A stretch of 56,985 bases of DNA, taken from NCBI GenBank assembly GCA_001817425.1, contig MHII01000006.1, forward strand, positions 1 through 56,985, read 5' to 3'. The DNA is from Candidatus Buchananbacteria bacterium RIFCSPHIGHO2_02_FULL_39_17. GTDB taxonomy: Bacteria; Patescibacteriota; Patescibacteriia; Buchananbacterales; UBA6539. The stretch's first letter is position 1. Each line of letters opens with the position of its first letter. The position numbers were made by a program, and so were the translations under genes. This document shows positions 2,113 through 49,929 of this stretch, in pieces. The notes below the pieces were generated by a model. That model was not told where the DNA came from. It ran no database searches and was given only the letters and a program-made list of their open reading frames with translations.

Positions 2113-4146
<2,034 letters not shown>

Positions 4147-4339
4147 AGTTAAGCGCTTCAAAATTAATATTATCTGAGTCTCGCCCCGCTCTAAACTAAA
4201 ATTAAAACACTAATTCTCCACAAATCAGCCGAAGGCGGTCTCCGCGCCAAATAAACTTTACAACTATCTAAAATTTCTCCGCGAGTTTAGGGCGGTGGTC
4301 CATGCGCATGCGAAGAGCGTTAAAAACTTAGACATTTAA
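4147..4339. mobile_element. miniature insertion after gyrB: spacer, ~112-nt structured element (4184-4295) and a displaced copy of the gyrB 3' end (4298-4339)
   Basis: 4298-4339 encodes [13 protein letters not shown], against [13 protein letters not shown] at 4105-4146. There are 7 differences in 42 nt, 6 of them synonymous. The element has inverted ends CCCCGCTCTAAACT/AGTTTAGGGCGG. Confidence 0.75.
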
Positions 4340-4387
4340 AAAAAGCCTGCCAAAAATTTGGCAGACAGACGAAGCAATCAAAGCTGA

Positions 4388-4798: not shown

Positions 4799-5054
4799 TT
4801 TCTGCCCTCCCGATGGTTTAACGTTCAAGGAACAAAAGATCTTAATTTTATTATAATATTAAATAATAAAAAAATCTACCCCCTTGACGAACTTAAATTT
4901 CCTGTGGTATTATGAAATTAAAAAATAATCAATAATCTAAAAAGTCCCCGGGGGGCTTTTTAAAATCCCGCAATTGATACCAATTACGGAATGATATAAA
5001 TAAATTCGTAGCATCTGAAGATTCGCATAAATTAGCAAATTAGCATTGTGTTTT

Positions 5055-5243
5055 ATGAATATTTCAAATAAAATCATAAACTACATTAAAGCTTCACAGC
5101 AAGAACTAAAAAAAGTCATTTGGCCTTCCCAAAAAGAGATCATCCAGCACACTTTATTAGTCATTGGCATTAGTCTTGGGGTATCAGTCTTTCTTGGAGT
5201 GATTGACTATATTTTAACCCTGATTTTAGAAGTTATCATTTAA
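5055..5243 (+). CDS. secE: preprotein translocase subunit SecE
   Basis: Small protein with ELKKVIWPSQKE followed by one TM helix, directly upstream of nusG. Confidence 0.85.
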   Translation: MNISNKIINYIKASQQELKKVIWPSQKEIIQHTLLVIGISLGVSVFLGVIDYILTLILEVII

Positions 5244-5892: not shown

Positions 5893-5985
5893 TATGATAC
5901 CAATTATACCAATCTACAAATAACATACCTTTATAAATTGTAGATTCGTAGATTAATATTCATTCGTAATTAGCATCATATTTAT

Positions 5986-6411
5986 ATGGCGAAAAAAATT
6001 AAAACTATAGTCAAAATTCAGATTCCAGGCGCTCAAGCTAACCCCGCGCCACCAGTCGGTCCGGCTTTAGGTCAGCATGGCTTAAATATTGCTGAATTCT
6101 GCCAAAAATTTAATGAACGAACAAAAGACCGACCAGGTGAATTAACTCCGGTTGAAGTCACGATCTATGAAGATCGCACTTATTCTTTTGCCACCAAAAC
6201 TTCACCCGCTTCGGAATTACTAAAAAAGGCGGCTAAAATTGAAAAAGGTTCTGGCGACATTTTGAAAAAAAAGGTAGGTAAAGTCACCAAAGCCCAAGTT
6301 CGAGAAATTGCCCAGAAAAAAATGCCGGATTTAAATGCGAAAAATTTAGCTGGGGCGATGAAGATAATAGAAGGTACGGCTAGACAAATGGGGCTAGAGA
6401 TTACTGATTAA
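5986..6411 (+). CDS. rplK: 50S ribosomal protein L11
   Basis: [24 protein letters not shown] motif. Confidence 0.97.
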
Positions 6412-6538
6412 GATAAGTTAATAGGTTGTCCCGCTTCGCCTGCGGCGGGTGGGATCCTCGATTTTGCGCCAAATCTAAGATTTGGGCAAAATCGGGAAGG
6501 GAACAGCCAGACAAATGGGATTAGAAATAATTGAATAG
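6412..6538. mobile_element. miniature insertion after rplK: spacer, hairpin element and a displaced copy of the rplK 3' end (6498-6538)
   Basis: 6503-6538 encodes [11 protein letters not shown], against [11 protein letters not shown] at 6376-6411. The differences are mostly third-position. Hairpins CGATTTTGCGCCAAATCT/AGATTTGGGCAAAATCG and CCCGC..GCGGG lie in between. Confidence 0.7.
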
Positions 6539-6540
6539 AA

Positions 6541-6655
6541 AATAAATTCCAAATTACAAATAAATTTCAATAGTCAAAATCCAAAATATTTTAATATTTT
6601 AAAAATTGTGATTTCTAATTTATTTGGAATTTAAAATTTGGATTTTGGATTTTAA
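6541..6655. repeat. AT-rich long imperfect palindrome (terminator-like repeat family)
   Basis: Arms AAATTCCAAAT...ATTTGGAATTT surround the centre AAATATTTTAATATTT. A homologous copy lies at 49641-49752. Confidence 0.7.
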
Positions 6656-6692
6656 AACTTTATTTAATTTTAAATATTAAATATCTAAATAT

Positions 6693-8502: not shown

Positions 8503-8895
8503 TTAATGATCCTTACCAATCTTATTTTGCATCAACTGTTTTAGCTCAAAAGTATCAGCGTGCTGGCAAACTCCAAAATAAGATGAAAAATTGTGGCTGT
8601 TTATTCTGTACAAGAACCGATGTTTTGTTTTAGTTCGCAAAACGACACCATATGGCGAATGAACATAGCCGACAAAATCAATCCCCTGGCTCCAAGACCT
8701 AATGTTAATTTTGACCGGATGAATTTTTAATTTTAATTTCTCGTTTAAAAATACGCTAACTTTGGGAATAATGCTCAAAAGATAGTGACGAGATTGATTA
8801 ATAATTAAAAAATCATCGCAATACCTTAAGTACCATTTTTCTCTTAAGCTGTGCTTAATAAAATAATCAAGTTCATTTAAGATAAATATTAGCAA
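8503..8895 (-). CDS. DGR-type reverse transcriptase, C-terminal part (motif 5 YCDD, thumb)
   Basis: Contains NELDYFIKH...RYCDDFLII and GIDFVGY. It continues the upstream ORF if one A of the AAA run (plus-strand TTT at 8876-8878) is removed. Confidence 0.85.
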   Translation of the reverse strand: MLIFILNELDYFIKHSLREKWYLRYCDDFLIINQSRHYLLSIIPKVSVFLNEKLKLKIHPVKINIRSWSQGIDFVGYVHSPYGVVLRTKTKHRFLYRINSHNFSSYFGVCQHADTFELKQLMQNKIGKDH

Positions 8896-9571
8896 AAAGT
8901 TGACTTGTCAAATTACCAAGTGGCAGACCTTTGTTCGGCGCCTTAGAAAAACTACCAATAATATGCCTTAACAGTTTAATTGTTTTTTCGTCTTTAATTT
9001 GGCAGCAAATAAAATCTAAAAGAATATTATGGTCAATGCTGTCAAAAAATTTGCTGACATCACACTTTAAAGCATAAATAGTTTTAGTGTTATTCTGGCT
9101 AGCTTTTGACAAAAAATCACGCAGGCGATAGGAAGCGCCGTGAATGCCCTTGCCAATTCGGCAGGAAAAGCTATTAAAAATAAATCGTTTTTCAAAAATT
9201 GGCTCAATAATGTTGACTACGGCCTGATGGACAATTCTATCTTTTACCGTGGTTTTATGAATTTGGCGCTTTTTAGGATCATAAACAATAAAAGGCTGAT
9301 ATTTACCATGGCAATAATTTTGATTTTTTAATTCAGCCTGTAGATTAAAAAGATTCTCTTCTAAATTTCTTTCATAAATCATTACATCTCGGCGAGAGTG
9401 TTTGCTTTTGGCAAACTTATACCAAGCTAAAAAAACATTTTCTAGGAAGAAAATTTTATCATAAAGCGATTTACTGGTATAATTATTATTACCATGACCC
9501 AAAATGATTTTATTAATCCCCCCCCCAACGGGTCTTACGGAAAAAGCATGCTGGATATTCCGATTATTCAT
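8873..9571 (-). CDS. DGR-type reverse transcriptase, N-terminal part (motifs 1-4), ending at a frameshift
   Basis: Contains DPKKRQIHKTTVKDRIVHQAV, KCDVSKFFDSIDH and the motif-4 sequence GLPLGNLTSQ ([ILV]GxxxSQ, the DGR hallmark). The start is uncertain because it overlaps the divergent avd. Confidence 0.85.
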   Translation of the reverse strand: MNNRNIQHAFSVRPVGGGINKIILGHGNNNYTSKSLYDKIFFLENVFLAWYKFAKSKHSRRDVMIYERNLEENLFNLQAELKNQNYCHGKYQPFIVYDPKKRQIHKTTVKDRIVHQAVVNIIEPIFEKRFIFNSFSCRIGKGIHGASYRLRDFLSKASQNNTKTIYALKCDVSKFFDSIDHNILLDFICCQIKDEKTIKLLRHIIGSFSKAPNKGLPLGNLTSQLFANIYLK

Positions 9572-9889
9572 CTGCTTTATGATTTTTATAAATTATGGCA
9601 CAAAGTTAGTTTAAACTTCCCTAAATCCCAGCGCTACACCCTAGGGCAAATCTGCGGCACTGATTTGTTACTGCTTTTAAAAAATATCTTGGCCGCTTCG
9701 GCAACCAAAGATCGAAAAATAAAATTAGAAAAACTGCGCCAGGCCAGCATCAAGCTTGATCTGATAAAAATTCTTATCAGGTTAGCTAAAGACTGCGACT
9801 GCCTACAAAATAAATCATATTTAGAGCTTCAGTCAAAACTCCATGGTATCGGCAAGATGCTTGGCGGCTGGATTAAATCTCTTGAATAA
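9548..9889 (+). CDS. avd: four-helix-bundle protein, Avd-like (23S rRNA IVS protein family)
   Basis: PKSQRYTLGQ and ...LHGIGKMLGGWIKSL are typical of this family. It is adjacent to the RT and TR but on the opposite strand. Confidence 0.75.
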   Translation: MLDIPIIHLLYDFYKLWHKVSLNFPKSQRYTLGQICGTDLLLLLKNILAASATKDRKIKLEKLRQASIKLDLIKILIRLAKDCDCLQNKSYLELQSKLHGIGKMLGGWIKSLE

Positions 9890-9942
9890 AAATTTACACA
9901 AACACCCGGTAAATTAACCGAGTGTTTGCTATTTTTGGCAAG

Positions 9943-10076
9943 CATTCCCAAAGACAGGAACCGCCCGGTGGCCGTGACGATTAGAAGCGTCGTCGGCCTT
10001 GAGCTTGACTTGACGATTATCGCAATTCCAGTTCAAGTTCGGCACGTATGACCAAGGCTGGTTGCCCGAAACAGAT
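9943..10076 (-). repeat. DGR template repeat (TR)
   Basis: Non-coding copy of the VR. On the minus strand it carries AAY codons at the positions that differ in the VR. Confidence 0.85.
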
Positions 10077-10103
10077 TAAATATTTCTATTCTTCCATTGC
10101 ACC

Positions 10104-10125
10104 GGACACAGGCGCACCCGTGTCC
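10104..10125. promoter_or_regulatory. GC-rich hairpin flanking the TR
   Basis: GGACAC-A-GG CGCA CC-C-GTGTCC, 28 nt from the TR end. Confidence 0.5.
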
Positions 10126-10398
10126 TGAATTTTATGCAAGATATAAGCTTGAAGCTTTATCTTAAAATAGAAATACGGAGTGCTTTACCATTGCTCTGCT
10201 CTCTTTTGACCGCCAACAGAAGCAGCCAAAACTTTGACAGATAAATGCAAGATAAAAAATTTCGGCGATTCCGATTCTTAAACCGGAATTCATAAGCCTA
10301 CTCTTTCGGTAATAATTATAGCATAATAAAAACAGGGTTTGAAGACCAAGATCCAAAAACCTTGAATTTCCAAACCCCAAAAGGCCAAGTACCGAATA

Positions 10399-11175
10399 CT
10401 AACACTCCACAAAGACAGGAACCGCCCGGTGGTAGTGACGAATAGAAGCGTCGTCGGCACTGAGCCTGACTTGACGACACCCGTAATGCCAGCACAAGTC
10501 CGGCACGTACGACCAAGGCTGGCTGCCCGAAATAGATAGCTGATAGCCAGGCAACCAGACGAACGGCACTTTGACGCCGTCCATTGCCTGTATCCACCGG
10601 GGGAAACAAGATGCCGCCCACAAGATTGCCGAAGGCAGCGAGGTTTTAGGAGTATGGACAGTTGGAGCAATGCCGTCTTTCTTATCCCAGTTGGCGGCGA
10701 AGTCAACTACTCGCCAGTGCAAACCGCGCTGATGAATAATGCCATCGAGCAACTTGAGATGATTTTCGTCGGACTTTACCTCGGGCCAGCGCCATTCACC
10801 TGGCTGAACCGCTTTGGTGAAATACCAGCCTTCTTCAAAAGTCCGGCTAACCGTGTCCAAAGACACATCCAGCACGACGGCGCAAAGATAGCCATCTGGC
10901 CAGGCCGGTGGCGGGCCAAGCGCTTCAAAGTCGGCTTCGGTAAAACCCCAATGGCGCTCGGCATTGCGCTGTCTGGTCAGTTCAAGTTGTTTTTCCGGCG
11001 GGATGAAAAACGACCGTCGGTCAATCAGCTTTGACACCTCCCGCATCACCTCGTCGGGATTAAGCGAGCCTTTACGGACGCGCTCAAACACATCGTGCTG
11101 GTGGCGGGCAAATTCGCCCAGCTTATCATCGGTGGGCACTACTCTTTTTTCGTCCGCGACAATTTCGGTTGTCAT
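10399..11175 (-). CDS. DGR target protein with a C-terminal variable region
   Basis: 258-aa GC-rich ORF. The last ~45 codons are the VR (...SGSQPWSYVPDLCWHYGCRQVRLSADDASIRHYHRAVPVFVEC). Confidence 0.8.
   Translation of the reverse strand: MTTEIVADEKRVVPTDDKLGEFARHQHDVFERVRKGSLNPDEVMREVSKLIDRRSFFIPPEKQLELTRQRNAERHWGFTEADFEALGPPPAWPDGYLCAVVLDVSLDTVSRTFEEGWYFTKAVQPGEWRWPEVKSDENHLKLLDGIIHQRGLHWRVVDFAANWDKKDGIAPTVHTPKTSLPSAILWAASCFPRWIQAMDGVKVPFVWLPGYQLSISGSQPWSYVPDLCWHYGCRQVRLSADDASIRHYHRAVPVFVEC
10403..10537 (-). repeat. DGR variable repeat (VR) at the 3' end of the target gene
   Basis: The 127-bp core 10411-10537 aligns without gaps to 9950-10076 with 18 mismatches. Twelve of them are at TR adenines on the minus strand. 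Confidence 0.85.
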
Positions 11176-12462: not shown

Positions 12463-12576
12463 ATTTCAAAAATACAATTCAAATCTGAAAACTTAAAAAT
12501 TTGATTTTTGAGATGTAATTTTGAGATTTGATTTTTGAGATTTAAGTTGTTTAATCTTTTTCTACAATATTAGCTA

Positions 12577-19255: not shown

Positions 19256-19430
19256 AATGTATTAACAAATACCAATATGAGTAAAGCCACGTCTAATAAA
19301 ATCATTCGGGGCTTTATTTTTTTTAAAATTTATGATAATATATAAAGCGATACCAATCTACAAATAACATGCGAATGATACGAATATATTTGCTGCATTC
19401 GCATAAATTCGTAATTTGCATTATATTTTT

Positions 19431-19612
19431 ATGAAATTAACACCCATCATCGGCCTAGAAATCCACCCCGCCCTAAGTTCGCGAATAAATTTTAAAAAAC
19501 TTTAGAGTTTATTCGGCGCGAATACGCCTTCGGCTTACATTATATAATTTTCAAGTTTAAATAATTAACTTAAGGCGGGGCAAGCGTTAATTCGATAATA
19601 TATATTAAATAT
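19431..19612. mobile_element. displaced gatB 5' end (19431-19466), ~114-nt structured element (19467-19580) and spacer (19581-19612)
   Basis: 19431-19466 encodes MKLTPIIGLEIH, identical to gatB codons 1-12 at 19613-19648, with 8 nucleotide differences that are all synonymous. The element is homologous, in inverted orientation, to the one after gyrB. Confidence 0.75.
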
Positions 19613-21187
19613 ATGAAACTCACCCCTATCATCGGATTAGAGATTCACGTTCAGCTAAAAACTAAATCCAAGATGTTTTGCGGCTGTGACAACAGCGGCG
19701 AAGACAAACCGGCGAATACGACGATTTGTCCAATTTGTCTTGGCCATCCCGGAGTTCTGCCGGTGGCCAACCGCCAAGCGATTGAATGGTCAGCGATGTC
19801 GGCTTTGGCTTTGAATTGCGAAATTCCCCAAACTTCAAAATTTGACCGCAAAAGTTATTTTTATCCCGACTTGCCAAAAAATTACCAAATCTCCCAATAC
19901 GATCAACCTCTTGGTGTTAGCGGCTACTTGATGATTCCGACCAAAAATGGAGAAAAAAAAATCGGCATTATTCGCCTCCATTTAGAAGAAGACGCCGCGA
20001 AAAATTTCCATTCTGCCGACGGCTCGCCTCGCTCGCCTAAAGGCGAAGCAAATGGCGAAGCGGGTAAAAATACTTTAGTTGATTACAACCGCGGCGGCAC
20101 GCCCCTAATGGAAATCGTCACCGAACCCGACCTGCGCTCGCCCCAAGAGGCAAAAACTTTTATGCAGGAGCTAAGGCTCATTATGCGCTATCTTAATGTC
20201 TCCGAAGCGGATATGGAAAAGGGCCACTTGCGCTGCGATGCCAATATTTCTTTGACCGACCAACCAGCAGAAAAAATTGACTTGAAAAAATTAAAACCAA
20301 AAACAGAAATTAAAAATTTAAACTCATTTAAAGCGGTTGAGCGCTCTTTGGAATATGAAATTAAAAGACAAGCAAAACTTTGGGCCGAAGGCCAAGCGCC
20401 AAAAAAGCAATCCACCCGCGGCTGGGACGAAGACGAAGGTATAACTGAAGATCAGCGAACCAAAGAGGAAGCGTCAGACTATCGCTATTTTCCCGAGCCA
20501 GATTTACCGCCAGTTAATTTCAACCCTCAAGCAAAAAATGGCATCAACCTGCAAATTTTACAAAACAAGTTGGGCGAGCTGCCCCAAAAAAAGCGCCGGC
20601 GTTTTATTCAAGAATTTGACTTAACCGCAGAAAATGCTAAGATTTTAACGGATGATGAAAGATTGGCTAATTTTTTTGAACAAGTAATTTCCGAATTGCA
20701 AGCTTGGTTGATTTCCTTAGGCGAAGCCGAAGGCACGGCCGAGGAGATCTGGCAAAAAAATAAGGCAAAACTTTCCAAACTAACCAGCAATTGGCTGATT
20801 AATAAACTTTTAGCTCTAATCTATAAGGATGGCAAACAAATCAAGGATTGCCCGCAGATCACCGCGGAAAATTTTGCCGAATTTATTACCTTAGTTCATC
20901 AAAATAAAATTAATTCAACGATTGCCCAAAAAATCTTAGAAAAAATGTACCAAACCGGAAAAGATCCATCGGTTATTATAACCGAAGAAGACTTGCAAGG
21001 CGGCCATGATGAAACCGCGCTAGAACAAATGATTGAAAAAATTATTAATCAAAGCCCAAAAGAAGTTGAACAATATAAAAAAGGCAAAGTAACTTTGCTC
21101 CAATATTTTATTGGTCAAGTCATGCGGGAAACTAAAGGCAAGGCCGACCCCCAGACAATTAAAAAAATTTTAATTAATAAATTATAA
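19613..21187 (+). CDS. gatB: Asp/Glu-tRNA amidotransferase subunit B
   Basis: Motifs IGLEIHVQL, CPICLGHPGVLP, LHLEEDA and VDYNRGGTPLMEIV, plus the C-terminal YqeY-like tail. Confidence 0.95.
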   Translation: MKLTPIIGLEIHVQLKTKSKMFCGCDNSGEDKPANTTICPICLGHPGVLPVANRQAIEWSAMSALALNCEIPQTSKFDRKSYFYPDLPKNYQISQYDQPLGVSGYLMIPTKNGEKKIGIIRLHLEEDAAKNFHSADGSPRSPKGEANGEAGKNTLVDYNRGGTPLMEIVTEPDLRSPQEAKTFMQELRLIMRYLNVSEADMEKGHLRCDANISLTDQPAEKIDLKKLKPKTEIKNLNSFKAVERSLEYEIKRQAKLWAEGQAPKKQSTRGWDEDEGITEDQRTKEEASDYRYFPEPDLPPVNFNPQAKNGINLQILQNKLGELPQKKRRRFIQEFDLTAENAKILTDDERLANFFEQVISELQAWLISLGEAEGTAEEIWQKNKAKLSKLTSNWLINKLLALIYKDGKQIKDCPQITAENFAEFITLVHQNKINSTIAQKILEKMYQTGKDPSVIITEEDLQGGHDETALEQMIEKIINQSPKEVEQYKKGKVTLLQYFIGQVMRETKGKADPQTIKKILINKL

Positions 21188-21942: not shown

Positions 21943-22937
21943 AAAAATTTAACAACGGTTTTAATGGCCTGATTAGAACTTTCAATCCACTTTATTTCTG
22001 CTGCCAATTGATGCTGAAACCATGTCATTTGCCTTTTGGCAAAATGAAAAATTTCTTTTTTTAATTGTTCAACCATTGTTTGATAACGAATTTCACCTTT
22101 AAGATATTTAGCAACCCAGCGATATTCCAAGCCAAAATCATCCAATCGTTGCCAGCTTAAATCTTGCTTATGCCAACGTTTCACTTCATTAATTAACCCC
22201 TGTTTTAAGCGCTCTGCTAAACGCTTGGCAATTCTCTTTTTCAAAATCGGATATGGATAAGTTAAACCTAAAAGCAAAAAATTGTATGACGGTTTTTGTT
22301 TTTTTAATTGCGCTGATTTGGGCCGACCGGTCTGATAATAAATTTCTAGCGCCCGTTGGACCCGCCGCCGATTTTTTTTATCAATGACTTGATAAGTTTT
22401 AAGGTCAATTTGCTTCAATTGTGCCAATAATTTTCCTAAAGTCAACTGATTAAGCCTGATTCTTAAATTTTGATTTTTGATTTTTGATTTTTGATTTTTT
22501 TCCGCCTCCGGCGGAAAATTGTATCCTTCAATTAAGGCGGAGATATATAATCCCGTGCCGCCGCAGACAATCGGTAATTTTTTTCTTTTTAAAATCTCTT
22601 CAATTTTTTGATAAGCCAATTTCTGCCACTTGGCCACGGTAAACTGCCTTTTCGGCGAAACAATATCAATCAAATGGTAAGGAATCTGAACCATTTTGGG
22701 ATTTGGGTATTGAAATTTGTAATTTATTTGAGATTTGAGATTTGAGATTTGAGATTTGACGACGTAGTCGTCCAAGTCTTTCCCCGTTCCAATATCCATC
22801 CCTTTGTAGACTTGCCGTGAATCAGCCGAAATAATTTCACCATTGAATTTCCTGGCTAATCTAACCGCCAGTTTGGTTTTGCCCGACGCCGTAGGGCCCA
22901 AAACCACAATTATTTTTGGATTTATTTCTTTAACCAT
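21933..22937 (-). CDS. miaA: tRNA dimethylallyltransferase
   Basis: Motifs GPTASGKT, IISADSRQVYKGMDIGTGK and YHLID. The start is set at MVKEINPK (22937). It carries two in-frame repeat insertions. Confidence 0.9.
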   Translation of the reverse strand: MVKEINPKIIVVLGPTASGKTKLAVRLARKFNGEIISADSRQVYKGMDIGTGKDLDDYVVKSQISNLKSQINYKFQYPNPKMVQIPYHLIDIVSPKRQFTVAKWQKLAYQKIEEILKRKKLPIVCGGTGLYISALIEGYNFPPEAEKNQKSKIKNQNLRIRLNQLTLGKLLAQLKQIDLKTYQVIDKKNRRRVQRALEIYYQTGRPKSAQLKKQKPSYNFLLLGLTYPYPILKKRIAKRLAERLKQGLINEVKRWHKQDLSWQRLDDFGLEYRWVAKYLKGEIRYQTMVEQLKKEIFHFAKRQMTWFQHQLAAEIKWIESSNQAIKTVVKFLKK

Positions 22938-25192: not shown

Positions 25193-25368
25193 TCATATCC
25201 GCTGATAAGCGGCATTGACTTGAAAGTATTGACCCCGCCTCTGGCGCTTGCGCTCGAGACGGGGTTTCTTTTTAAAATATAATGCCAATAATGCGAATTT
25301 GTACGAATGATACTAATATTCGTATATTCGTAGCATTCGCATATCATTCGTAGATTGGCATTATATTA

Positions 25369-28643: not shown

Positions 28644-28799
28644 CATATAACACGGTTTATGTGATTCCCCTCTCGACTCGTCGCTATGCTCCTCACTCGA
28701 GGTTCACCCAAATTTTGATATTATTTCTGTGATTTACTCCGCAATATTATATCACAGAAATAATTATCAAAACTTCATATAAACTGGTAACGTTAGGTG
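28644..28799 (+). repeat. attC-like imperfect palindrome (S1)
   Basis: Starts CATATAAC-ACGGT-TTATGTG and ends CATATAA-ACTGGTAAC-G|TTAGGTG. Extra unpaired bases lie on the 3' arm. Confidence 0.6.
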
Positions 28800-28842
28800 A
28801 TATAAATTTTTATTTATTACTAATAATAAATGTATGGGTTTA

Positions 28843-28992
28843 ATGGAACCAGCAATAAAGAGCAAAGAAGCTCTTGAAGCCATAGCTAGTGTCGCATCTA
28901 AGCCGTGGTATAAAAGAGTTGATTCTTGGCTTGTTATTGTCAATATTGTTGCATTGATAGTTAATATAACTATCATGTTAAAGCAACAATAA
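28843..28992 (+). CDS. 49-aa single-TM cassette peptide
   Basis: MEPAIKSKEALEAIASVASKPWYKRVDSWLVIVNIVALIVNITIMLKQQ fits inside cassette X. No clear SD. Confidence 0.3.
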   Translation: MEPAIKSKEALEAIASVASKPWYKRVDSWLVIVNIVALIVNITIMLKQQ

Positions 28993-29002
28993 AAATTTAC
29001 AC

Positions 29003-29044
29003 CACCTAACACCTGCTATACGGTTCGCTCCGGTAAATAAAATT
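29003..29044 (+). repeat. attC-like site, 5' half (S2 left)
   Basis: CACCTAAC-ACCTG-CTATACGG. CACCTAAC is the exact reverse complement of TTAGGTG at the start of cassette X. Confidence 0.55.
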
Positions 29045-29053
29045 AACATAAAT

Positions 29054-29359
29054 ATGACTTACTATATACTAACAATTATATTTTTACTTTTTCTAGGAGC
29101 TACAGCATCCGCTACGTTTGCGGAAAAAAGTCCAAGATCAGATCGACCAAGAATTTATTGGAATGAATCATTCTTAAAACTCATTGGTCTATTTTTATGG
29201 CCAACATTATTGCTTGGAATTATTATTCTATCCATGAATTGGAAATTATCTTTATTAATAATTATTCTTGCACTATTTCTACAAAAAATGATTTTAGTGC
29301 CAATATCTGAAAAAATAATTATTTCACCACTACACCTTCTGTTAAACAAGAAAAAGTAA
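29054..29359 (+). CDS. 101-aa membrane protein, bracketed by a 13-bp perfect inverted repeat
   Basis: Three hydrophobic helices. It lies between GGTAAATAAAATT (29032-29044) and AATTTTATTTACC (29380-29392). Confidence 0.5.
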   Translation: MTYYILTIIFLLFLGATASATFAEKSPRSDRPRIYWNESFLKLIGLFLWPTLLLGIIILSMNWKLSLLIIILALFLQKMILVPISEKIIISPLHLLLNKKK

Positions 29360-29379
29360 AAATATAATAATTAGGTACG

Positions 29380-29489
29380 AATTTTATTTACCTCGCTCAC
29401 CCAAATTTCGTTTTCACTTAGGCGGTTGCCTCCGGCAAATTATACCGCCACATTCAAACGAAACTTCGGCTAGCCCGTTCCGTTATACG
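29380..29489 (+). repeat. attC-like site, 3' half (S2 right)
   Basis: Central long stem (TTAGGCGGT..ACCGCCAC), then CTTCGGCTAGCCCGTTCC-G|TTATACG. It shares 25 identical nt with S5. Confidence 0.55.
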
Positions 29490-29516
29490 AAATTTTTGTA
29501 AAAATCCTTTAATATT

Positions 29517-30161
29517 ATGTTTTCAGAAAAAAAATTTTCTCTCGCTAACGAGGGTGAACCAAAAATAATTATCAAGCGTTCTACGGATGCCCCACCAGAT
29601 GTCAAACAAAACCCTTTTTACGATTCCGAATTTTGGGGGCGCGCTAATTCCCCAGATGATATCTACTTACCAGATTCTGATGAGGCGATATCTTTTGCGA
29701 TGGCGGCGCATGAGATCGGCCATCTAGTTAAAGCGGGTGAGAGAAATGACGCTCGTTTGGATAATTTTGAGGCTACCCGCGCCGAAGAACAACGTGCTTG
29801 GGATAAAGGCTGGGAATATTTGCAAGAATTTGTAGACGAGTATTATGCGGATAAACCAGAATGCGCCCCCAAAATTCGCCAAGCTTTTGAGCGTATAAAA
29901 ACCTTGCTTTTGCAAGCGACCGATTTAAGTAAAGGTATGTATCTTGAAAATGGTGCGCTTGATAATTTAGCTCCAGATGAAATTCAACGTATATTGGTAG
30001 AAAAACGAGAAAAATTTTTTTCTGAAAAAGGCGAACTCTTTAAAAATATTTTCGACGAAATGAAAAAAGAGAAAATTGGAATTAAGCCTGACTGGGACAA
30101 ATTCACCGCTATTGTTACTAAGGCCGTCGAAAATATTTTAAAAGACAACGATAAGGAGTAG
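29517..30161 (+). CDS. HExxH-motif protein (putative zinc metallopeptidase-like), cassette Y
   Basis: AAHEIGHLV motif. 214 aa. No closer family recognised. Confidence 0.55.
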   Translation: MFSEKKFSLANEGEPKIIIKRSTDAPPDVKQNPFYDSEFWGRANSPDDIYLPDSDEAISFAMAAHEIGHLVKAGERNDARLDNFEATRAEEQRAWDKGWEYLQEFVDEYYADKPECAPKIRQAFERIKTLLLQATDLSKGMYLENGALDNLAPDEIQRILVEKREKFFSEKGELFKNIFDEMKKEKIGIKPDWDKFTAIVTKAVENILKDNDKE

Positions 30162-30178
30162 AATTTTTACAAAAACAT

Positions 30179-30305
30179 CGTATAACACCGAATATACGGC
30201 TACGATAAAATTCCTTTTTACATTAATGAATTGATTTTTATCTCCGCCAAAATTTTTCTCCGCCTTTGGCTCCGAAAAACTTCGTATATTCGGATACGTT
30301 GTATG
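30179..30305 (+). repeat. attC-like imperfect palindrome (S3)
   Basis: Starts CGTATAAC-ACCGAATATACGG and ends CGTATATTCGG-ATAC-G|TTGTATG. The L arms are an 11-bp perfect inverted repeat. Confidence 0.65.
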
Positions 30306-30367
30306 ATATGTAACTTGTTGTTTAAGAAAGAAGACCCAGCATGAACTGAGTCTGTATGCAAGGTGTA

Positions 30368-30655
30368 TTAGTCAGCGAGACCAGCGGCGGCAATGAATTC
30401 CCGCAGTTCCCTTCTTTGCCCTTCTGGTCGGGCTAGGAATTTGGCGCGCTTTGGCAGAGTAAATAGGACACTACCATCCTGTTTAAGTTCTGCCTGCAGC
30501 GACCAGTGATCCTCGTCGGTAAGATCGTGAGTCGCTGATATTTCACCATCTGGTTTAACGGAAACATGGAAATTCGTAAACCATCTTTTCCGGTGCCTGA
30601 ACTCAAGTTCAAGCTTAAGGCCCATTCCTTCCAGTACCTCGACTTTTAGAAACAT
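30368..30655 (-). CDS. 95-aa GC-rich hypothetical protein, cassette Z
   Basis: SD GAGGAGGAGG lies 6 nt upstream of the ATG at 30655. Confidence 0.55.
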   Translation of the reverse strand: MFLKVEVLEGMGLKLELEFRHRKRWFTNFHVSVKPDGEISATHDLTDEDHWSLQAELKQDGSVLFTLPKRAKFLARPEGQRRELREFIAAAGLAD

Positions 30656-30806
30656 TGGATTCACCTCCTCCTCAAAGAACATTGACGATCTAGTCGTCTG
30701 GCAATGAGGCTAGGCCTCAGTTATTTCTTATTTGCCACTAGATCACAGATTACTTTATCATTATTAACAGTAGATGTCAAATCAAATCTAACAACAAGTT
30801 ACACAT

Positions 30807-30978
30807 CATACAACACGTTTTATGTGGTTCCCCTCTCGACTCGGCCGCTTTGGATAAACTCTGAGGCCTCGCTCGAGGTTCACCCAAATCGCTTGTCGTC
30901 TTAGGTGGTAGCGCCCACAGGCGCAATTATACCACCACGACGACTGCGCGACTTCATATAAACTGATAACGTTGTGTG
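30807..30978 (+). repeat. attC-like imperfect palindrome (S4), paralog of S1
   Basis: Starts CATACAAC-ACGTT-TTATGTGG and ends CATATAA-ACTGATAAC-G|TTGTGTG. Confidence 0.6.
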
Positions 30979-31105
30979 CCATTTTATTCAAAATATTTTA
31001 AATTTTATGATTAGAGCCCTTTTGAAATTTTTCTGAAATAAAAACCCCGCATCAGATGTTCCGAAGAACTCTCCGATACAGGGCGTTTGTACATGGCAGT
31101 GCGAC

Positions 31106-31243
31106 CTATGAGAGCCATACTAACAGCGCGGCAAGGCCGACGATGACGAAGTTTATGCCAATTCCAATTGCCCAGTCTTTCCATGAGTGAAACGGCCACA
31201 TATCATCTTGCCGAGGAAACGCTTTGACTGACAGAAAGAACAT
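31106..31243 (-). CDS. 45-aa single-TM peptide, cassette V
   Basis: SD GGAGAA is upstream. The sequence is MFFLSVKAFPRQDDMWPFHSWKDWAIGIGINFVIVGLAALLVWLS. Confidence 0.35.
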   Translation of the reverse strand: MFFLSVKAFPRQDDMWPFHSWKDWAIGIGINFVIVGLAALLVWLS

Positions 31244-31387
31244 ATTGTTCTCCTTTCCGATTATTAACTTTCACTATAAGTTACATCTCCTAATTTAGTA
31301 AGATAGCATGTTCTAACTAAAAAATCAAACCCATAGCAAAAAAATTTCAAAAGGGCTCTAATAATAAGGTATTTTTTAATAAAACAT

Positions 31388-31540
31388 CACCTAACACGTT
31401 TTATAAGGCTCGCGCCTTACCTAAGTCTTTCGGCTCGCGGATATTTTGTTCTCGCTTATGTGGTGTCCTCCGGACAATTTTACCACAACGTTCAAACGAA
31501 ACTTCGGCTAGCCCGATAACACGGTCTATCCGATTCGCGA
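31388..31540 (+). repeat. attC-like site (S5), apparently composite, last in the array
   Basis: Starts CACCTAAC-ACGTT-TTATAAGG and ends CTTCGGCTAGCCCG followed by ATAACACGGTCTATCCG, which looks like a new 5' half. Confidence 0.5.
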
Positions 31541-33610: not shown

Positions 33611-36600
33611 TTATTCGTATTTCTCCACCCGAAAGGAATCCTTGCCTAAAATTTCTTCGATTTCTGATTTGATTTTGGCGCCGGCATCAACTAAAAAATT
33701 AGTGCTAATTTTTTTAAAGCCAAAACTATTTTTAACTACCAAAACCGCTTTATATTTCCCGTGGTGCTTTTTAAAAATTTCTTTTAGTTTCTCGCCGTCA
33801 GCCGTTAGTAGGCTTGGCGGCAACGTAATAAAAGCGGTCCCGCCAATCAAAAGTTCTTTGGTGTTATCAACGATACGGTGATTAAATTTTTTCGCCCAAA
33901 AGCCATTGCGGCCGTTGCCATTCCCATTAGCGACCGCGAGCTGATCCAACTCTTTAACCACTGAAGAAACATTTTTTACTTCTAATTCTCTAACTTGGTT
34001 GCAGATTAATTTTGCCTCACCGTCTTTATCCGATAAACGGCAGTTCATCATTATGATCTTATCTTCCTGCCAAATATTTTGGTCGGCTTTAAGAATACTG
34101 GGGAAAACTAAAACTTCAATCCCGCTTGAAATATCTTCAATTCGGACAAAAAGCATGGCATCACCGCTTTTGGTAATAATTTTTTTAATTTTGGTAATCA
34201 CCCCGGCCACCTTCATGGCCGAATCGCGCTCATAGTGGTTAGTCGTTATTTCTTTAATCGGCACGACATAATCACGAAGTTGACTCTGGAATTCACTAAG
34301 CGGATGGGCGGAAACATAAAGGCCTAAAAATTCTTTTTCCCAATTTAATTTTTGTTTGTCATCAGCCGATTCAATCAGATCCAAAATTAGTTTTGGAATA
34401 GCCGCGGTCGTGGCCAGCATCCCAAACAGGCTTGATTGTTTAGACTCGGCCTCGGCATTGATATTTTTGATAAAGACCAAAAGCTTATCCATATTATAAA
34501 GCAAGCGATTGCGCTCGCCTAATTTATCAAGCACGCCCGCTTTAACCAACGCCTCTAAAGATTTTTTATTCAAATCTTTAGTTTTAACCCGACTCAAAAA
34601 GTCTTCCAAATTTTGGTAAGGACCATTCGCTTTACGCTCCTTGATAATTTCTTTAATAATATTTTCACCCAAATTTTTTACCGCCGAAAGGCCAAAACGG
34701 ATTTTTTTACTTTCTTTATCCGCTTTAACTTCCAGCGAATCATAAACCACGGTAAAAGTGGAAAAACTTTCATTAATATCCGGCGGCAAAACTTCCAGCC
34801 CCATCTGCCGGCACTCTTCAACCTCCACCGCAATCCGGTCAATATTGCCATGGTCCGCCGTCAAAAGCGAGGCCATAAATTCCGCTGGATAACGCGATTT
34901 CAAATAAGCGGTTTGGTAAGCAATTAAAGCATAACAAGCGGCGTGCGACCGATTAAAGCCATAGCGGGCAAAAGGCAAAATATAATCCCAAATTTGTTTT
35001 GCCACCCTGCGGGTAATGCCATTTTTCATCATGCCGGAAACCATTTTTTCTTCCTGCTCATTTAATAAAGAAGCGATTTTTTTCCCTACGGCTTTTCGTA
35101 AAACATCCGCTTCGCTGTAGGAAAATCCCGCTAATTTTCTGGCAATTTCCATCAATTGTTCTTGATAGATAATAATGCCATAAGTTTTTTCCAAAATTGG
35201 CTCCATCCGTTCATCTAAATAATAGACTTTTTTTAAACCATGCTTGGCGGCAATATAATCAGAAATAAATTCCATCGGGCCGGGCCGATAAAGGGAAACC
35301 ATGGCAATAATGTCTTCTAGCTCCGTGGGCACAAGCATTTTTAAATAGCGCTTCATGCCGGAGCTTTCTAATTGAAAAACGCCGGTGGTTTCCGCTCGCT
35401 GCAAAAGAGCAAAAGCATTTTTATCGCCCAAAGGCAGCTCATCAATGTTAATTTCCAAGCCCCGGGCTTTTTTTAAAATTTCTAAGGTATTTTCAATAAT
35501 CGTTAAATTTTTTAAGCCCAAGAGGTCAATTTTCAATAAACCCAAATCTTCAATGGTGTGCATTTCATACTGGGTGACAATTTCTTCCGGATTTTGGCTT
35601 GAACGCTGGCGCGGCACGTAATTATCCATCGGTTTAGGGGTTACAACCACACCGCAGGCGTGCGTCGAGGCGTGCCGGGCACTGCCTTCAAGTTTTTTGG
35701 CGATTTCGAGTAAGCGCTTGCCGTCCGGATCCGCCATCACCCCTTGAAGGTCAGGAACGGTTTTAATGGCTTGGCCAAGAGACATAAACATGGGAATCAT
35801 TTTCGCTACCTTGTCGCAGTAGTTATAAGGCAACCCCATGACCCGGCCGACATCGCGGACCGCGGCGCGCGCCGCCATTGTACCAAAAGTAATAATTTGC
35901 GCCACGTGGTCCTGTCCATATTTGTCCGCCACATAATCAATCACTTCGTCGCGGCGCGCGTCCGCAAAATCAGAATCAATATCCGGCATGGAAATTCTTT
36001 CTAGATTTAAAAACCGCTCAAAAAGCAAATCATATTTCAACGGATCAATATTAGTGATATTGGTCAAATAGGAAACCAGGCTGCCCGCGGCGGAACCACG
36101 GCCCGGCCCAACCACAATTCCGTTATTTTTTGCCCAATTGATAAAATCAGCGACAATCAAAAAATAAGAGGCAAAGCCAGTTTTGGCAATCACCGATAAT
36201 TCATAATCAAGCCGTTTAGTAATTTCCTCGCTAACTTGATTTTGCCCAAATCTCCTTTTTAATCCCTCCTGACAAAGATCAGTGAGATATTGTTCTTCGG
36301 TCTTGCCATTTGGCACTTCAAAATGCGGCAATAAAGTTTTCCGCAGTTCTAACTCAAGGTTACATTTTTCTGCCAGCGCTAAAGTGTTAGTAATAATCTG
36401 TGGCTGATTTGGCCAGGCGTTTTTCATCTGCTCCGGGGTTTTCATTGAAAAATCCTCGCCTAAATATGACATCCGGTCAGTGTCAGCTAAAGTCTTTTTC
36501 GTTTGGATACAAAGCAGGGCATCTTGAGCATAATCATCATCGGAATTCAAATAATGAATGTCATTCGTAGTGACCACCGGAATGCCTAATTTTTTCCCTA

Positions 36601-37174
36601 AATCAATCACTCTTTTATTAACCTCAATTTGTTTAGTTAAATTCGGATGCGGCTGAACCTCCAAATAATAGTTACCTTCGCCAAATATTTTTAAATAGCG
36701 AATTGCTGTTTCTCCGGCCTTTTTTTCATCAATCATTAAATTTTTGGCAATCTCGCCCTGGAGACAAGCCGAACAACAAATTAATCCCTCATGATATTTT
36801 TCTAAAAGTTCCAAATCAACCCTCGGCCGATAATAAAAACCGTCTAAGTGAGCAATGGTGGTCAGTTTAATCAAATGGCGATAACCGGTTTCATCTTTGG
36901 CCAATAATAAAAGATGATAAGGATTATCATCAATTTTCGGCCGCTTATCTTTATGGCCATTTCGCGCGACATAAGCCTCAACACCCAGAATCGGCTTAAT
37001 GCCGGCTTTCTTCGCTTTCTGATAAAACTCAATTAAACCATACATCACGCCGTGATCTGTTAAAGCCAGCGCCGGCATGCCCAGATCCTTTGCCTTTTTG
37101 ATTAAATCGTCAATTTTTGGCTGACCGTCAAGCAAAGAATAATGGGAATGAGTATGCAGATGAACAAAAGACAT
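33611..37174 (-). CDS. dnaE: DNA polymerase III subunit alpha
   Basis: PHP domain FVHLHTHSHYSLLDG, then GPGRGSAAGSLVSY and MPDIDSDF. 1187 aa. Confidence 0.97.
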   Translation of the reverse strand: MSFVHLHTHSHYSLLDGQPKIDDLIKKAKDLGMPALALTDHGVMYGLIEFYQKAKKAGIKPILGVEAYVARNGHKDKRPKIDDNPYHLLLLAKDETGYRHLIKLTTIAHLDGFYYRPRVDLELLEKYHEGLICCSACLQGEIAKNLMIDEKKAGETAIRYLKIFGEGNYYLEVQPHPNLTKQIEVNKRVIDLGKKLGIPVVTTNDIHYLNSDDDYAQDALLCIQTKKTLADTDRMSYLGEDFSMKTPEQMKNAWPNQPQIITNTLALAEKCNLELELRKTLLPHFEVPNGKTEEQYLTDLCQEGLKRRFGQNQVSEEITKRLDYELSVIAKTGFASYFLIVADFINWAKNNGIVVGPGRGSAAGSLVSYLTNITNIDPLKYDLLFERFLNLERISMPDIDSDFADARRDEVIDYVADKYGQDHVAQIITFGTMAARAAVRDVGRVMGLPYNYCDKVAKMIPMFMSLGQAIKTVPDLQGVMADPDGKRLLEIAKKLEGSARHASTHACGVVVTPKPMDNYVPRQRSSQNPEEIVTQYEMHTIEDLGLLKIDLLGLKNLTIIENTLEILKKARGLEINIDELPLGDKNAFALLQRAETTGVFQLESSGMKRYLKMLVPTELEDIIAMVSLYRPGPMEFISDYIAAKHGLKKVYYLDERMEPILEKTYGIIIYQEQLMEIARKLAGFSYSEADVLRKAVGKKIASLLNEQEEKMVSGMMKNGITRRVAKQIWDYILPFARYGFNRSHAACYALIAYQTAYLKSRYPAEFMASLLTADHGNIDRIAVEVEECRQMGLEVLPPDINESFSTFTVVYDSLEVKADKESKKIRFGLSAVKNLGENIIKEIIKERKANGPYQNLEDFLSRVKTKDLNKKSLEALVKAGVLDKLGERNRLLYNMDKLLVFIKNINAEAESKQSSLFGMLATTAAIPKLILDLIESADDKQKLNWEKEFLGLYVSAHPLSEFQSQLRDYVVPIKEITTNHYERDSAMKVAGVITKIKKIITKSGDAMLFVRIEDISSGIEVLVFPSILKADQNIWQEDKIIMMNCRLSDKDGEAKLICNQVRELEVKNVSSVVKELDQLAVANGNGNGRNGFWAKKFNHRIVDNTKELLIGGTAFITLPPSLLTADGEKLKEIFKKHHGKYKAVLVVKNSFGFKKISTNFLVDAGAKIKSEIEEILGKDSFRVEKYE

Positions 37175-37346
37175 AGGTTATAGTAGATTTTTAGAAGCCG
37201 GAATCAATCCTTGGCCTCTAAGGAAAGATAAACTCCCCCTCAAAGTTTAATGATAATTCAAAAGTCAAATCTCAAAAATCAAAAGTTTGGTAACCGCCTT
37301 CGGCGGTTTTTATTCACTTTTGAATTTTAACTTGAAATTTTGACTT

Positions 37347-44889: not shown

Positions 44890-45136
44890 GAAACTTTTTT
44901 TCTTGCCCCGCACTAATTCCAAATATTAATTGGGTTTAAAAAAATGTAAGCCATAGGCGATTTCGCGCGAAATTAACAAAAAATAAAGTGGGGCTATTCG
45001 CGGAATTTAGTGCGTGGTGCTCGTCATTCAAACTTTTCAAATTCAATTCCATAGATATACTTTAGCATAAAAACATGATTAATTTAAGGGTTATTTTTAA
45101 CATTCGCATGTGCACATTCGTAGTGCGCTTTCGCAT

Positions 45137-45189
45137 ACAAAAAATCCGCTTTCGGTCTTCGTGAAAACAAAGAATTCCGAAAGCGGATT
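45137..45189 (-). terminator. intrinsic terminator of the fucose-isomerase-like gene
   Basis: AATCCGCTTTCGG / CCGAAAGCGGATT stem, followed by a T-run on the minus strand. Confidence 0.75.
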
Positions 45190-49549: not shown

Positions 49550-49640
49550 AATTTATCATATTAAAAAATAAAGTCAATCCTCATGGGATAATAGATATGT
49601 CTTGTTAAATTCTCTAAACTCAATCAAAACCAAAACGTTT

Positions 49641-49752
49641 TAAATTCCAAATCTCAAATCACAAATCCCAAATAAATTCCAATAACCAAATTCAAAATAT
49701 TTTAATATTTGAAAATTGAAATTTTAAATTTATTTGGAGCTTGAAATTTAGC
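49641..49752. repeat. AT-rich long imperfect palindrome (same family as 6541-6655)
   Basis: Shares the ...CAAATAAATTCCAA...AAAATATTTTAATATTT...AATTTATTTGGA... architecture. Confidence 0.7.
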
Positions 49753-49929
49753 GCTTGGTGCTTATTATTCGCTTATAGCAAGCTCCTCTAAACCATAACC
49801 GAAATTTGAAAGATAAGGCCACTTCTAAAAAAGCTCCTAATAGCAGCACTCGCTAGCCGGCAAGCCCGAGCCGCAAGGGCAATCATCCCTTAAACGGGGC
49901 ATATTTGAATAAATCCTAAATTCTAATAT

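Follow-up and report, generated by a model that had tools for sequence, protein, structure and literature searches.

The first twelve codons of gatB are present twice in the genome of Candidatus Buchananbacteria bacterium RIFCSPHIGHO2_02_FULL_39_17, a metagenome-assembled genome (MAG) of the Patescibacteria or candidate phyla radiation (CPR) from Rifle aquifer groundwater, and a structured, non-coding element of 119 nt, here termed E, lies between the two copies. The stretch of DNA analysed, hereafter the window, comprises 56,985 nt (contig MHII01000006.1, positions 1 to 56,985). The arrangement recurs at other genes and in other genomes. We tentatively interpret E, with slightly less than even confidence, as a non-autonomous, structured, terminus-replacing mobile cassette of Buchananbacteria-like CPR bacteria that occupies the ends of conserved genes and tRNAs. 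A sequence-only reading of the window had proposed a terminus-replacing insertion; the recurrent layout and the empty sites in relatives speak for it, and the mechanism outlined below is a proposal.

Duplicated gene ends and the element E in the window

Direct reading of the sequence confirmed that gatB codons 1-12 occur as ATGAAATTAACACCCATCATCGGCCTAGAAATCCAC at 19431-19466 and again as ATGAAACTCACCCCTATCATCGGATTAGAGATTCAC at 19613-19648. The copies differ at 8 nucleotides across 7 codons. All 8 differences are synonymous, as the sequence-only reading had stated, and the peptide of either copy is MKLTPIIGLEIH; about 22% of random substitutions in these codons are expected to be synonymous. 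The downstream copy is fused to the functional gene. The reading frame of the upstream copy, the orphan, enters the element and indeed meets a stop after 24 codons; counted from an upstream TTG it has 29 amino acids (19416-19505). The gatB insert comprises 146 nt with no open reading frame (ORF) of more than 29 amino acids. The CGTT at the start of the spacer continues the orphan gene, and the functional copy at this point reads CAC followed by GTTCAG.

An assembly chimera was ruled out. Ten independent assemblies (2 NCBI MAGs and 8 metagenome contigs of the European Nucleotide Archive, ENA) agree fully (100% identity) across a stretch of 360 nt that includes orphan, element and gene start. 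The exact GyrB of the window, which carries a second copy of E at its gene, is encoded in 15 contigs, and both of those examined had the occupied spacing of the window.

E was characterised in an alignment of 15 copies of about 119 nt each, taken from the window, one genome of the Genome Taxonomy Database (GTDB) and 13 metagenome contigs. A covariance model, R1, was built from this alignment, and its search of the window yielded exactly three strong copies of 88-105 bits. The homology of the gatB element to one at gyrB in opposite orientation, noticed earlier, was borne out by alignment and covariance model; the third copy, at a helicase gene, and a related duplication at rplK had escaped the earlier reader. 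At gatB the ends previously named, CCCGCCCTAAGTT and AACTTAAGGCGGGG, hold for an element at 19467-19580, and the model extends it to 19465-19584.

The closing stem of E comprises 11-14 bp with 95.7% of the cells paired, and its covariation was exceeded by 0 of 500 shuffles. Further inside, a CGCG/CGCG helix encloses a hairpin that has a different sequence in each copy. An invariant core, GCGCGrA-n2-3-CGCCUnnGGCU, includes a 3-bp stem with a variable loop. The right end is asymmetric, GCGGGGC(A/G)AG, with an extra CRAG relative to the inverted ends. In the CAAG-ended subfamily the bases right of E continue the orphan gene; in the CGAG-ended subfamily a conserved tail, ACGAGGnnTnATTTAGT or ACTCArATA, is found instead. 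Counts of G.U and C.A in the closing stem, compiled in an attempt to assign the strand and to distinguish RNA from DNA, were balanced.

Rfam 15 gave no match at the gathering score over the whole window, and the region 19300-19700 produced only chance-level matches (expect values of 2 or more). A pattern scan of viral contigs found 0 matches to E, and blastn found none in phage and plasmid records. On metagenomes a stricter pattern returned 15 loci, one of which (L147; loci from other genomes and metagenomes are cited by L numbers) is a GC-rich chance match. Among genome contigs chance matches were abundant in GC-rich genomes, and among the matches listed only L039 was relevant. A 52-nt direct repeat in the window (37255-37306 and 51260-51311, 90% identity), which ends in a CCGCCTTCGGCGG hairpin, gave a weak partial match of 21 bits to the E model. 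It is intergenic, beside a dnaE-like ORF (33611-37174) and the metG ORF (51327-52760).

At gyrB the last 13 codons are duplicated around an insert of 152 nt, which again contains no ORF of more than 29 amino acids. The gyrB orphan is followed by a hairpin with terminator features (4345-4366, detected on the minus strand). At the helicase gene the orphan N-terminus MELNLKSLNDE faces the functional N-terminus MPELNIKNLNPE, and the duplication scored 35 in a BLOSUM comparison vs. a background mean of 13 with a standard deviation of 6. The earlier order of displaced fragment, element, spacer and terminus applies to gatB and gyrB and also to the third copy and most further sites; the spacers measure 28 nt (gatB) and 33 nt (gyrB) instead of the roughly 32-37 nt given before. 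The 3' end of rplK has the same layout with 5 synonymous and 2 conservative codon differences between the end copies. Because the rplK duplication flanks a different hairpin element, the terminus-replacing layout extends beyond one element family.

A scan of all ORF ends of the window revealed exactly four terminus duplications well above background, namely the three E loci and the rplK 3' end, and in all four a hairpin element lies between the copies. The sole other match was the repeat pair of a diversity-generating retroelement (DGR) described below. No gene-end duplication without a hairpin element was found among these ORF ends. The density of events thus amounts to four end replacements in 57 kb of a streamlined CPR genome. 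Coordinates are collected in the table together with the sites outside the window.

The orphans most probably stand in the native context, because at gatB the orphan is accompanied by a promoter-like box, a motif shared with rplK and ATTCGYA-type repeats, and because a terminator-like hairpin follows the gyrB orphan. In a promoter scan a -10-like box, TATATT, ended 3 nt ahead of the orphan gatB ATG, implying what would be a leaderless or near-leaderless start. The orphan start is preceded by GCATTATATTTTT-ATG. As had been claimed, the rplK start has a similar motif, and a close variant is found there at 5973-5988; the form common to both starts is GCATnATATTTwT-ATG (GCATTATATTTTTATG). Like the orphan, gatB of the element-free relatives L151 and L153 has ATTCGYA-type repeats upstream. 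The earlier view that the upstream copy is the original start gains support from these three features. The gatB spacer had no significant similarity to the native upstream region (p=0.13), and no copy of it was found elsewhere in the loci compared. A foreign mosaic tract in the gatB body gave no signal when sliding-window identity to five relatives was determined.

Arrays of ATTCGYA/TRCGAAT half-sites, partly palindromic, are located just upstream of several apparently leaderless gene starts: in the window at 19358-19430, 45085-45140 (minus strand), 5004-5033 and 25318-25361, in L151 at 1795-1860 and in L153 at 2370-2470. Element-free relatives have them in the same position, and they may function as a clade-typical operator or promoter module. 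The 39 nt at 19350-19388 and the stretch 25323-25361 are complementary at 87%.

Table. Features of the terminus-replacing loci in the window and of E sites in other genomes and metagenomes
Feature	Position	Strand	Remarks
gatB native promoter-proximal region	19398-19430	+	TTCGCA-18 nt-TATATT, then TTT, then orphan ATG (promoter scan)
Orphan gatB codons 1-12	19431-19466	+	displaced, presumably native; MKLTPIIGLEIH
E copy 1	19465-19584	+	cmsearch 104.7 bits, expect value 4.6e-26; fold z-score -5.2 vs. shuffled; closing stem CCCCGCCCTAAGTT/AACTTAAGGCGGGG, inner CGCG/CGCG helix, invariant core GCGCGAATACGCCTTCGGCT, right end GCGGGGCAAG
gatB spacer	19585-19612	+	28 nt; first ~4 nt CGTT, then unique AT-rich sequence ending in TATATTAAATAT before the functional ATG
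Functional gatB	19613-21187	+	524 aa; GatB_N and GatB_Yqey domains; first 36 nt (19613-19648) are the replacement terminus
gyrB	2116-4146	+	GyrB Pfam domains; last 41 nt (4106-4146) are the functional, replacement 3' terminus
gyrB stop-to-element spacer/tail	4147-4179	+	33 nt; on the element strand ACTCAGATAATATTA..., tail also in L140
E copy 2	4180-4298	-	cmsearch 88.5 bits; right end toward gyrB
Orphan gyrB 3' terminus	4299-4339	+	6 differences from functional copy, all synonymous
UvrD-helicase/PD-(D/E)XK (AddA-like) gene	41830-44889	-	first ~36 nt (MPELNIKNLNPEQ) are the replacement terminus
Helicase spacer	44890-44901	-	12 nt, AAAAAAAGTTTC
E copy 3	44902-45018	-	cmsearch 100.9 bits; inverted-repeat match to copy 1
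Orphan 5' terminus of helicase gene	45019-45052	-	MELNLKSLNDE...; preceded by ATTCGYA-type repeats
rplK (L11) 3' end	6376-6538	+	E-like layout with different element; functional end to 6411, then 16-nt spacer
rplK-type element	6428-6505	+	~78 nt, GC-rich, two hairpins; shares TCGCCTGCGGC with E core
Orphan rplK end	6503-6538	+	
Response regulators			three lineages; E at LLVEDD codons; L140 has the E-spacer-end unit twice in tandem
uvrA			E at GAREH
gatB, genome MHIE (L148)			same codon-12 position as in the window; 8 differences, all synonymous
gyrB, L145			exact position as in the window
tRNA-Thr			E in anticodon loop of orphan copy
tRNA-Leu (two sites)			two inward-facing E copies, one side with an orphan 3' half and the other with an orphan 5' part
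Ribosome-binding site of pilin-like gene			13 nt duplicated
L136			intergenic duplication, 20 nt
L143 (twelfth site)			only ~10-nt similarity, of doubtful significance
L144			two tandem E copies, no obvious duplication

Recurrence of the layout and divergence of the end copies

Read on the strand of E, the layout consists of the orphan end in its native context, E, 0-16 nt that continue the orphan, a unique spacer of 12-70 nt and the second end copy fused to the gene. All three E copies of the window and most others show it. E is oriented along the gene at 5' ends and opposite to it at 3' ends, so that the functional copy is always right of E. Other genomes and metagenomes yielded twelve more insertion sites, and at eleven of them orphan, E, spacer and functional end follow each other in this order. 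A catalogue of duplicated termini as envisaged by the sequence-only reading shows a duplicated end at about 13 of 16 E copies. The three findings that the sequence-only reading had named as refuting it did not turn up: further copies exist, empty sites are seen in relatives (see below) and the ten assemblies of the gatB site agree.

The orphan is colinear across E in L142 (15 of 15 nt), L148 (14/16) and L137 (8/8 and 6/7), and no target-site duplication was found at E. Therefore E appears to have been inserted precisely into the orphan copy, with nothing duplicated. In most cases it is inserted at A^C or A^T, after a weakly purine-rich context, and the left flanks share a weak (G/C)A^ preference. 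The stretch shared by the two junctions is 16 nt long in L039 and 7 nt at gyrB of the window. It is only CAC at the two gatB loci and about 1 nt in L145; mutation after insertion may have shortened it. Some end pairs are identical or nearly so: 31 of 31 nt in L140, 20 of 20 in L136 and 3 differences in 42 nt in L145.

The locus L039 has a second hairpin repeat family (CCCCGTTAGAAAT...ATTTCTAACGGGG) at 2010-2141, 5048-5143 and 4154-4250, one copy of which is nested in the tail of an E element. It has target duplications of 4 nt, namely TATG (at a start codon), TTGA (within a -35 box) and CGAG, as ordinary miniature inverted-repeat transposable elements (MITEs) do. Because this family has 4-nt duplications, the repeats of these genomes do not in general come with long duplications bounded by gene ends.

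The gatB site is empty, with a single start and no element, in four syntenic relatives: L153 (77% GatB identity), L011 (76%), L151 (75%) and L013 (75%). In L013 the gyrB 3' end is empty as well. On the other hand, MHIE, the GatB of which is only 68% identical, has E at the same gatB nucleotide position, and L145, with 66% identity in the C-terminal region of GyrB, has E at the same gyrB position. This patchy distribution implies either that E was inserted independently at these shared conserved positions or that it was lost several times.

Directly upstream of the element-free gatB of L151 an ORF of the GxxExxY type (PD-(D/E)XK fold, PDDEXK_3) is inserted at 1416-1817. The N-terminus of L151 GatB, MNLTPVIGLEIHIQLK, matches the distant MHIE protein and not the closer relatives, which may reflect co-conversion by another selfish element at the same hotspot.

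Eight coding end pairs were compared. They contain 35 synonymous vs. 9 nonsynonymous codon differences, with about 20% synonymous expected at random, and 41 of the 58 nucleotide differences are at third codon positions. Synonymous changes that require several steps (CGT/AGA, TTA/CTG) are among them. Amino acids differ only at positions that vary among orthologues, e.g. N-terminal residues 2-4, and none of the nonsynonymous differences affects an invariant-motif codon of gatB or gyrB. In at least 8 cases the similarity between the copies stops 0-3 nt from the start or stop codon. Taken together the end copies differ like orthologues of different lineages. Therefore most of the divergence predates the juxtaposition of the copies; decay in place of an untranslated orphan would not give such a pattern. 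Either one copy stems from a different lineage, which for the response regulators is possibly a paralogue, or both copies have been under selection at the protein level. For the comparison of orphan and functional copy the sequences of relatives are saturated (gatB; rplK C-terminus). Adenine mutagenesis as in DGRs was rejected as the source of the differences, which involve all four bases and are synonymous; at gatB adenine accounts for 3 of 8.

Proposed insertion mechanism and its alternatives

If E is a mobile cassette, the incoming DNA would be small and would consist of the hairpin flanked by homology to the target, with the replacement end (A') on one side and, on the other, a short piece (x) of a few nucleotides from the downstream gene. 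With the spacer as S, it would be equivalent to a circle (A'-E-x-S). A conservative recombination of the Campbell or homing type would insert it, with the crossover at the foot of the hairpin and in most cases at A^C or A^T. Catalysis would be provided in trans; a tyrosine recombinase of the XerA/integron-integrase type acting on the folded hairpin, as IntI does on attC, is a candidate. As the cassette would supply its own gene end and a short flank, the essential gene would stay intact while its native end would be orphaned. Conserved motifs such as IGLEIH, FIHAHAK, LLVEDD, GAREH and tRNA loops would be good targets, being present in every lineage. The Campbell-type product would reproduce every feature of the layout and would regenerate the target. 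Re-use of such a regenerated target would account for the tandem E-spacer-end unit in L140.

No integrase, transposase or homing endonuclease was detected in Pfam scans of 20 window ORFs and in the precomputed Pfam annotation of the gatB neighbourhood. The only reverse transcriptase among the scanned ORFs belongs to the DGR, 10 kb away. Among the best 25 of 92 Pfam families, the 59 ORFs flanking other E copies yielded a single recombinase, which is XerA/integron-integrase-like; TnpA and TnpB were found neither there nor among the scanned window ORFs. None of the loci contained an extended E with an ORF. The recombinase is part of L148 (3633-4862, minus strand), where a protein of 274 amino acids is encoded beside a four-helix-bundle/Avd-like ORF. 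It scored 237 bits with NF040815 (cutoff 220) and 230 bits with TIGR02249 (cutoff 265). It is located 2.2 kb downstream of the E-occupied gatB of MHIE, outside the insert, and the pair of ORFs is absent from the corresponding place in the window.

Several observations weigh against the mobile-cassette interpretation. The MHIE recombinase, seen near E in one genome, is a candidate for the enzyme acting on E and counts as a lead, not as a finding. Neither a circular or excised form nor an occupied/empty polymorphism within a species was observed. E is without the R-box consensus of integron attC sites, and the 1-3 nt shared at several junctions (CAC at gatB) seem too short for the overlap that a classical tyrosine recombinase uses. 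A simple site-specific model has no role for the 0-16 nt by which the orphan continues right of E, and it does not account for the first capture of a replacement end when a new target is taken. Where different lineages have E at one and the same target, the copies are 59% and 56% identical vs. 63-66% among the three window copies, and their tails and spacers differ as well. Because same-target copies are not closest relatives and have different tails and spacers, a single travelling lineage per target is unsupported. Clustering of E copies by target, which such a horizontally spreading lineage would predict, was not seen, and cassettes seem to form repeatedly. The stronger claim, that E represents a new class of bacterial mobile element, i.e. 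an ORF-less hairpin of about 119 nt which is recombined in trans into conserved gene and tRNA ends by a host XerA/IntI-like or other enzyme and brings a terminus from another lineage, is in our view rather doubtful. On this view E would be a homing-like parasite of essential genes, able to do without an endonuclease gene of its own, and would keep moving short gene pieces from one CPR lineage to another.

An alternative that we regard as unlikely, though it has to be taken seriously, divides the event into two steps. A plain hairpin transposon (HUH- or recombinase-type, without target duplication and cargo) would have inserted into the gene end, and a break or stall at the hairpin would have led to patch repair by short-tract copying from a diverged homologue, e.g. 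after uptake of community DNA, and end joining, via synthesis-dependent strand annealing or homology-facilitated illegitimate recombination. The product would be native end, E and a few nucleotides, joined to foreign flank and foreign end on the native gene. E does look like a simple insertion without target duplication in the orphan copy, x looks native (with 15/15 matches in L142 and 14/16 in L148), the spacer resembles an unrelated upstream or downstream flank and the gatB body has no mosaic tract. Subtypes of E that do not track targets would fit repeated local events, a different hairpin element has the same outcome at rplK, and two or three E copies look plain or tandem and intergenic (L143, L144). 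Yet harmless bare copies should then dominate, while about 13 of 16 copies have a duplicated end. Moreover, a lethal step and its rare repair would be needed repeatedly, twice at the same nucleotide of gatB and of gyrB in distant lineages, and the near-identical end pairs of L140 and L145 still have spacers unrelated to the native flank.

It is improbable that the loci are scars of a kilobase-sized integrative element or of a mobile ORF (mORF) with homing endonuclease, the body of which was deleted with the hairpin left behind as part of attP or as a terminator. The logic of attL and attR would fit, with the orphan as native end plus a few nucleotides of element-borne homology, and tRNA anticodon loops and 3' halves are classic integrase sites. 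The mORF precedent is documented (PMC3630166), and selfish small ORFs are found near gatB in relatives (the GxxExxY nuclease-fold ORF of L151, GIY-YIG ORFs of L011). However, separate deletions would not end up with one and the same 119-nt element, its core invariant and its ends conserved, at more than 12 different loci. E lies between the native end and the short homology and not where an element body would be expected, no longer ORF-bearing version was seen in any locus, and phage, plasmid and viral-contig searches gave no match. Very improbable is a long, variable target-site duplication, as reported for IS1634-type elements, with divergence of the copies in place. Direct repeats of 10-45 nt do flank the element, some pairs are identical or nearly so (L140, L136, L145), and the tandem unit of L140 would fit; but an untranslated orphan should gain mostly nonsynonymous changes, and the observed 35 synonymous vs. 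9 nonsynonymous differences largely refute this explanation. In addition, the repeats end 0-3 nt from start or stop codons in at least 8 cases, and right of E the orphan runs on, with no restart of the repeat, in L142, L148 and L137. Hardly to be considered, finally, is a cis-regulatory leader, in which E would be an RNA attenuator or riboswitch-like structure behind a leader peptide that mimics the N-terminus of the gene. At 5' sites E does fold stably and is placed behind a short ORF and ahead of the gene, with all three on one strand. This does not agree with E being downstream of gyrB in opposite orientation and interrupting tRNA genes, four closer relatives have no such leader at gatB, Rfam has no match, and the read-through peptides are not conserved between the window and MHIE. 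Translational bypass and splicing were set aside as well, in view of the stop codon within E, the sites at 3' ends and in tRNAs and the truncated orphan.

Replacement of gene ends is known from kilobase elements with an enzyme of their own. Here it is repeated at many targets (gatB, gyrB, uvrA, a helicase gene, response regulators, tRNAs and a ribosome-binding site) by a non-coding structured element of 119 nt. If E is truly a mobile cassette, it would be the smallest known element able to live inside essential genes, and it could be a compact, structure-guided integration system. It would provide a route for micro-scale horizontal transfer of the most conserved gene parts, and it would give rise to annotation errors in CPR genomes such as false small ORFs, wrong start sites and split tRNAs. 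If patch repair applies instead, the loci would be a record at the sequence level of natural transformation and illegitimate repair in uncultured bacteria.

Other repeats and comparison with known systems

Further repeats are present in the window and in L148. A gene-poor stretch at 28644-31515 contains structured repeats of 83 nt (29395-29477 vs. 31433-31515, 80%) and 37 nt (28644-28680 vs. 30807-30843, 92%) and a 31-nt inverted repeat (31005-31035 and 31337-31367, 94%). Short-period AT-rich repeats, TTTGAGATTTGAGATTTGA and AAATCTCAAATC, are found in both orientations in many intergenic regions, such as 870-909, 12504-12543, 22446-22757, 6544-6661 and 49634-49758. In L148 the palindromic unit TGTCATTCCCGCGAAAGCGGGAATCCAG occurs twice, at 2179-2206 and 2559-2586, 380 nt apart. 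One of the two makes up the 3' end of miaA as called (...GFPLSRE*), and the unit may belong to a further type of small repeat by which ORF ends are created or extended.

The window also contains a DGR (8503-11175) with an RVT_1 reverse transcriptase at 8873-9571 (minus strand) and, at about 9494-9889, a bAvd ORF. Two repeats of 128 nt (9949-10076 and 10410-10537, 86% identity) presumably constitute its template and variable repeats (TR/VR); the second repeat is in the 3' end of an ORF of 258 amino acids (10399-11175, minus strand) without Pfam match. DGRs resemble the E loci in having a second, diverged copy of a gene 3' end nearby. They differ in that their changes are adenine-specific and protein-altering, with reverse transcriptase and Avd adjacent, whereas the end copies at E differ synonymously and in all four bases.

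The closest likeness in architecture is found in gene hybrids created by mORFs in fungal mitochondria, i.e. atp6-ORF360 of Allomyces macrogynus and atp6, atp9, cox2 and nad3 of Glomus sp. (Beaudet et al. 2013, PMC3630166). Their order is gene core, inserted foreign C-terminus, homing-endonuclease ORF and displaced native C*-terminus; the termini have 64-81% DNA identity with nearly identical protein, which was read as horizontal transfer of the element together with the gene end (PMC3630166). The E loci likewise have an inserted terminus that is diverged in DNA, conserved in protein and contiguous with the gene, and a displaced native terminus. In contrast, mORFs encode a LAGLIDADG or GIY-YIG homing endonuclease to which they owe their mobility, replace only 3' ends and reside in organelle genomes. 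E has 119 nt, no ORF and no linked nuclease, and it is found at 5' ends, 3' ends and tRNA halves of a bacterial chromosome.

Integrative elements with a gene-end copy in attP include phage 21 and e14 in icd, islands in the 3' halves of tRNA and tmRNA genes and cis-mobilizable elements (CIMEs). Common to these and E are a Campbell-type insertion (proposed in the case of E), an intact gene, a displaced native end and mostly synonymous divergence, as well as targets in tRNA anticodon loops and 3' halves; the short homology beyond their crossover resembles the x segment at E. Yet the attP elements are kilobases long, encode or borrow an integrase and have an identical core of 6-8 bp at both junctions, while inserts with E comprise 150-300 nt, one family serves at least 10 targets and no integrase was found among the scanned ORFs of the window.

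Integron attC sites are ORF-less imperfect hairpins of 57-141 nt that are recognised by structure and moved in trans by a tyrosine recombinase. E matches this type of imperfect hairpin of about 60-140 nt with its 119 nt, covarying closing stem and variable inner hairpins. A cassette of cargo with a hairpin at one end, cleavage beside A^C (as proposed for E) and a XerA/IntI-like gene in one E host are further parallels. However, E ends in CCCCGCAC.../...GTGCGGGGCRAG, and RYYYAAC/GTTRRRY boxes are missing from the base of the stem in the 15 aligned copies. There is no attI platform, Pc promoter or cassette array; E copies are dispersed singly, with tandems only in L140 and L144. In addition, the cargo of E is a mimic of a gene end and its insertion site is the homologous gene.

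MITE-like and palindromic repeats, i.e. repetitive extragenic palindromes and bacterial interspersed mosaic elements (REP/BIME), Correia elements, Rickettsia palindromic elements (RPE), mitochondrial GC clusters and double-hairpin elements, are like E small, structured, dispersed, non-autonomous and GC-rich in an AT-rich genome. Their target duplications are short and of fixed length or absent, and they are not known to bring a replacement gene end. Compared with MITEs of DDE transposases, E has inverted ends but no target duplication of fixed length, and its right end has the extra asymmetric CRAG. IS200/IS605-type (HUH) elements and palindrome-associated transposable elements (PATEs) with omega-RNA insert 3' of a conserved 4-5-nt target or transposon-associated motif (TAM) and have subterminal hairpins and no inverted ends; E shows only a weak left-flank preference and complementary ends.

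A prior description of such an element in CPR/Patescibacteria was not found in the literature searched. The E loci lack the defining features of mORF hybrids, attP elements and integron cassettes, and E is a member of none of them. In accordance with the sequence-only reading, which could not assign the element to a described class, Rfam gave no match. Thus the end-replacing architecture has precedent in larger elements, and its small, ORF-less version appears to be undescribed.

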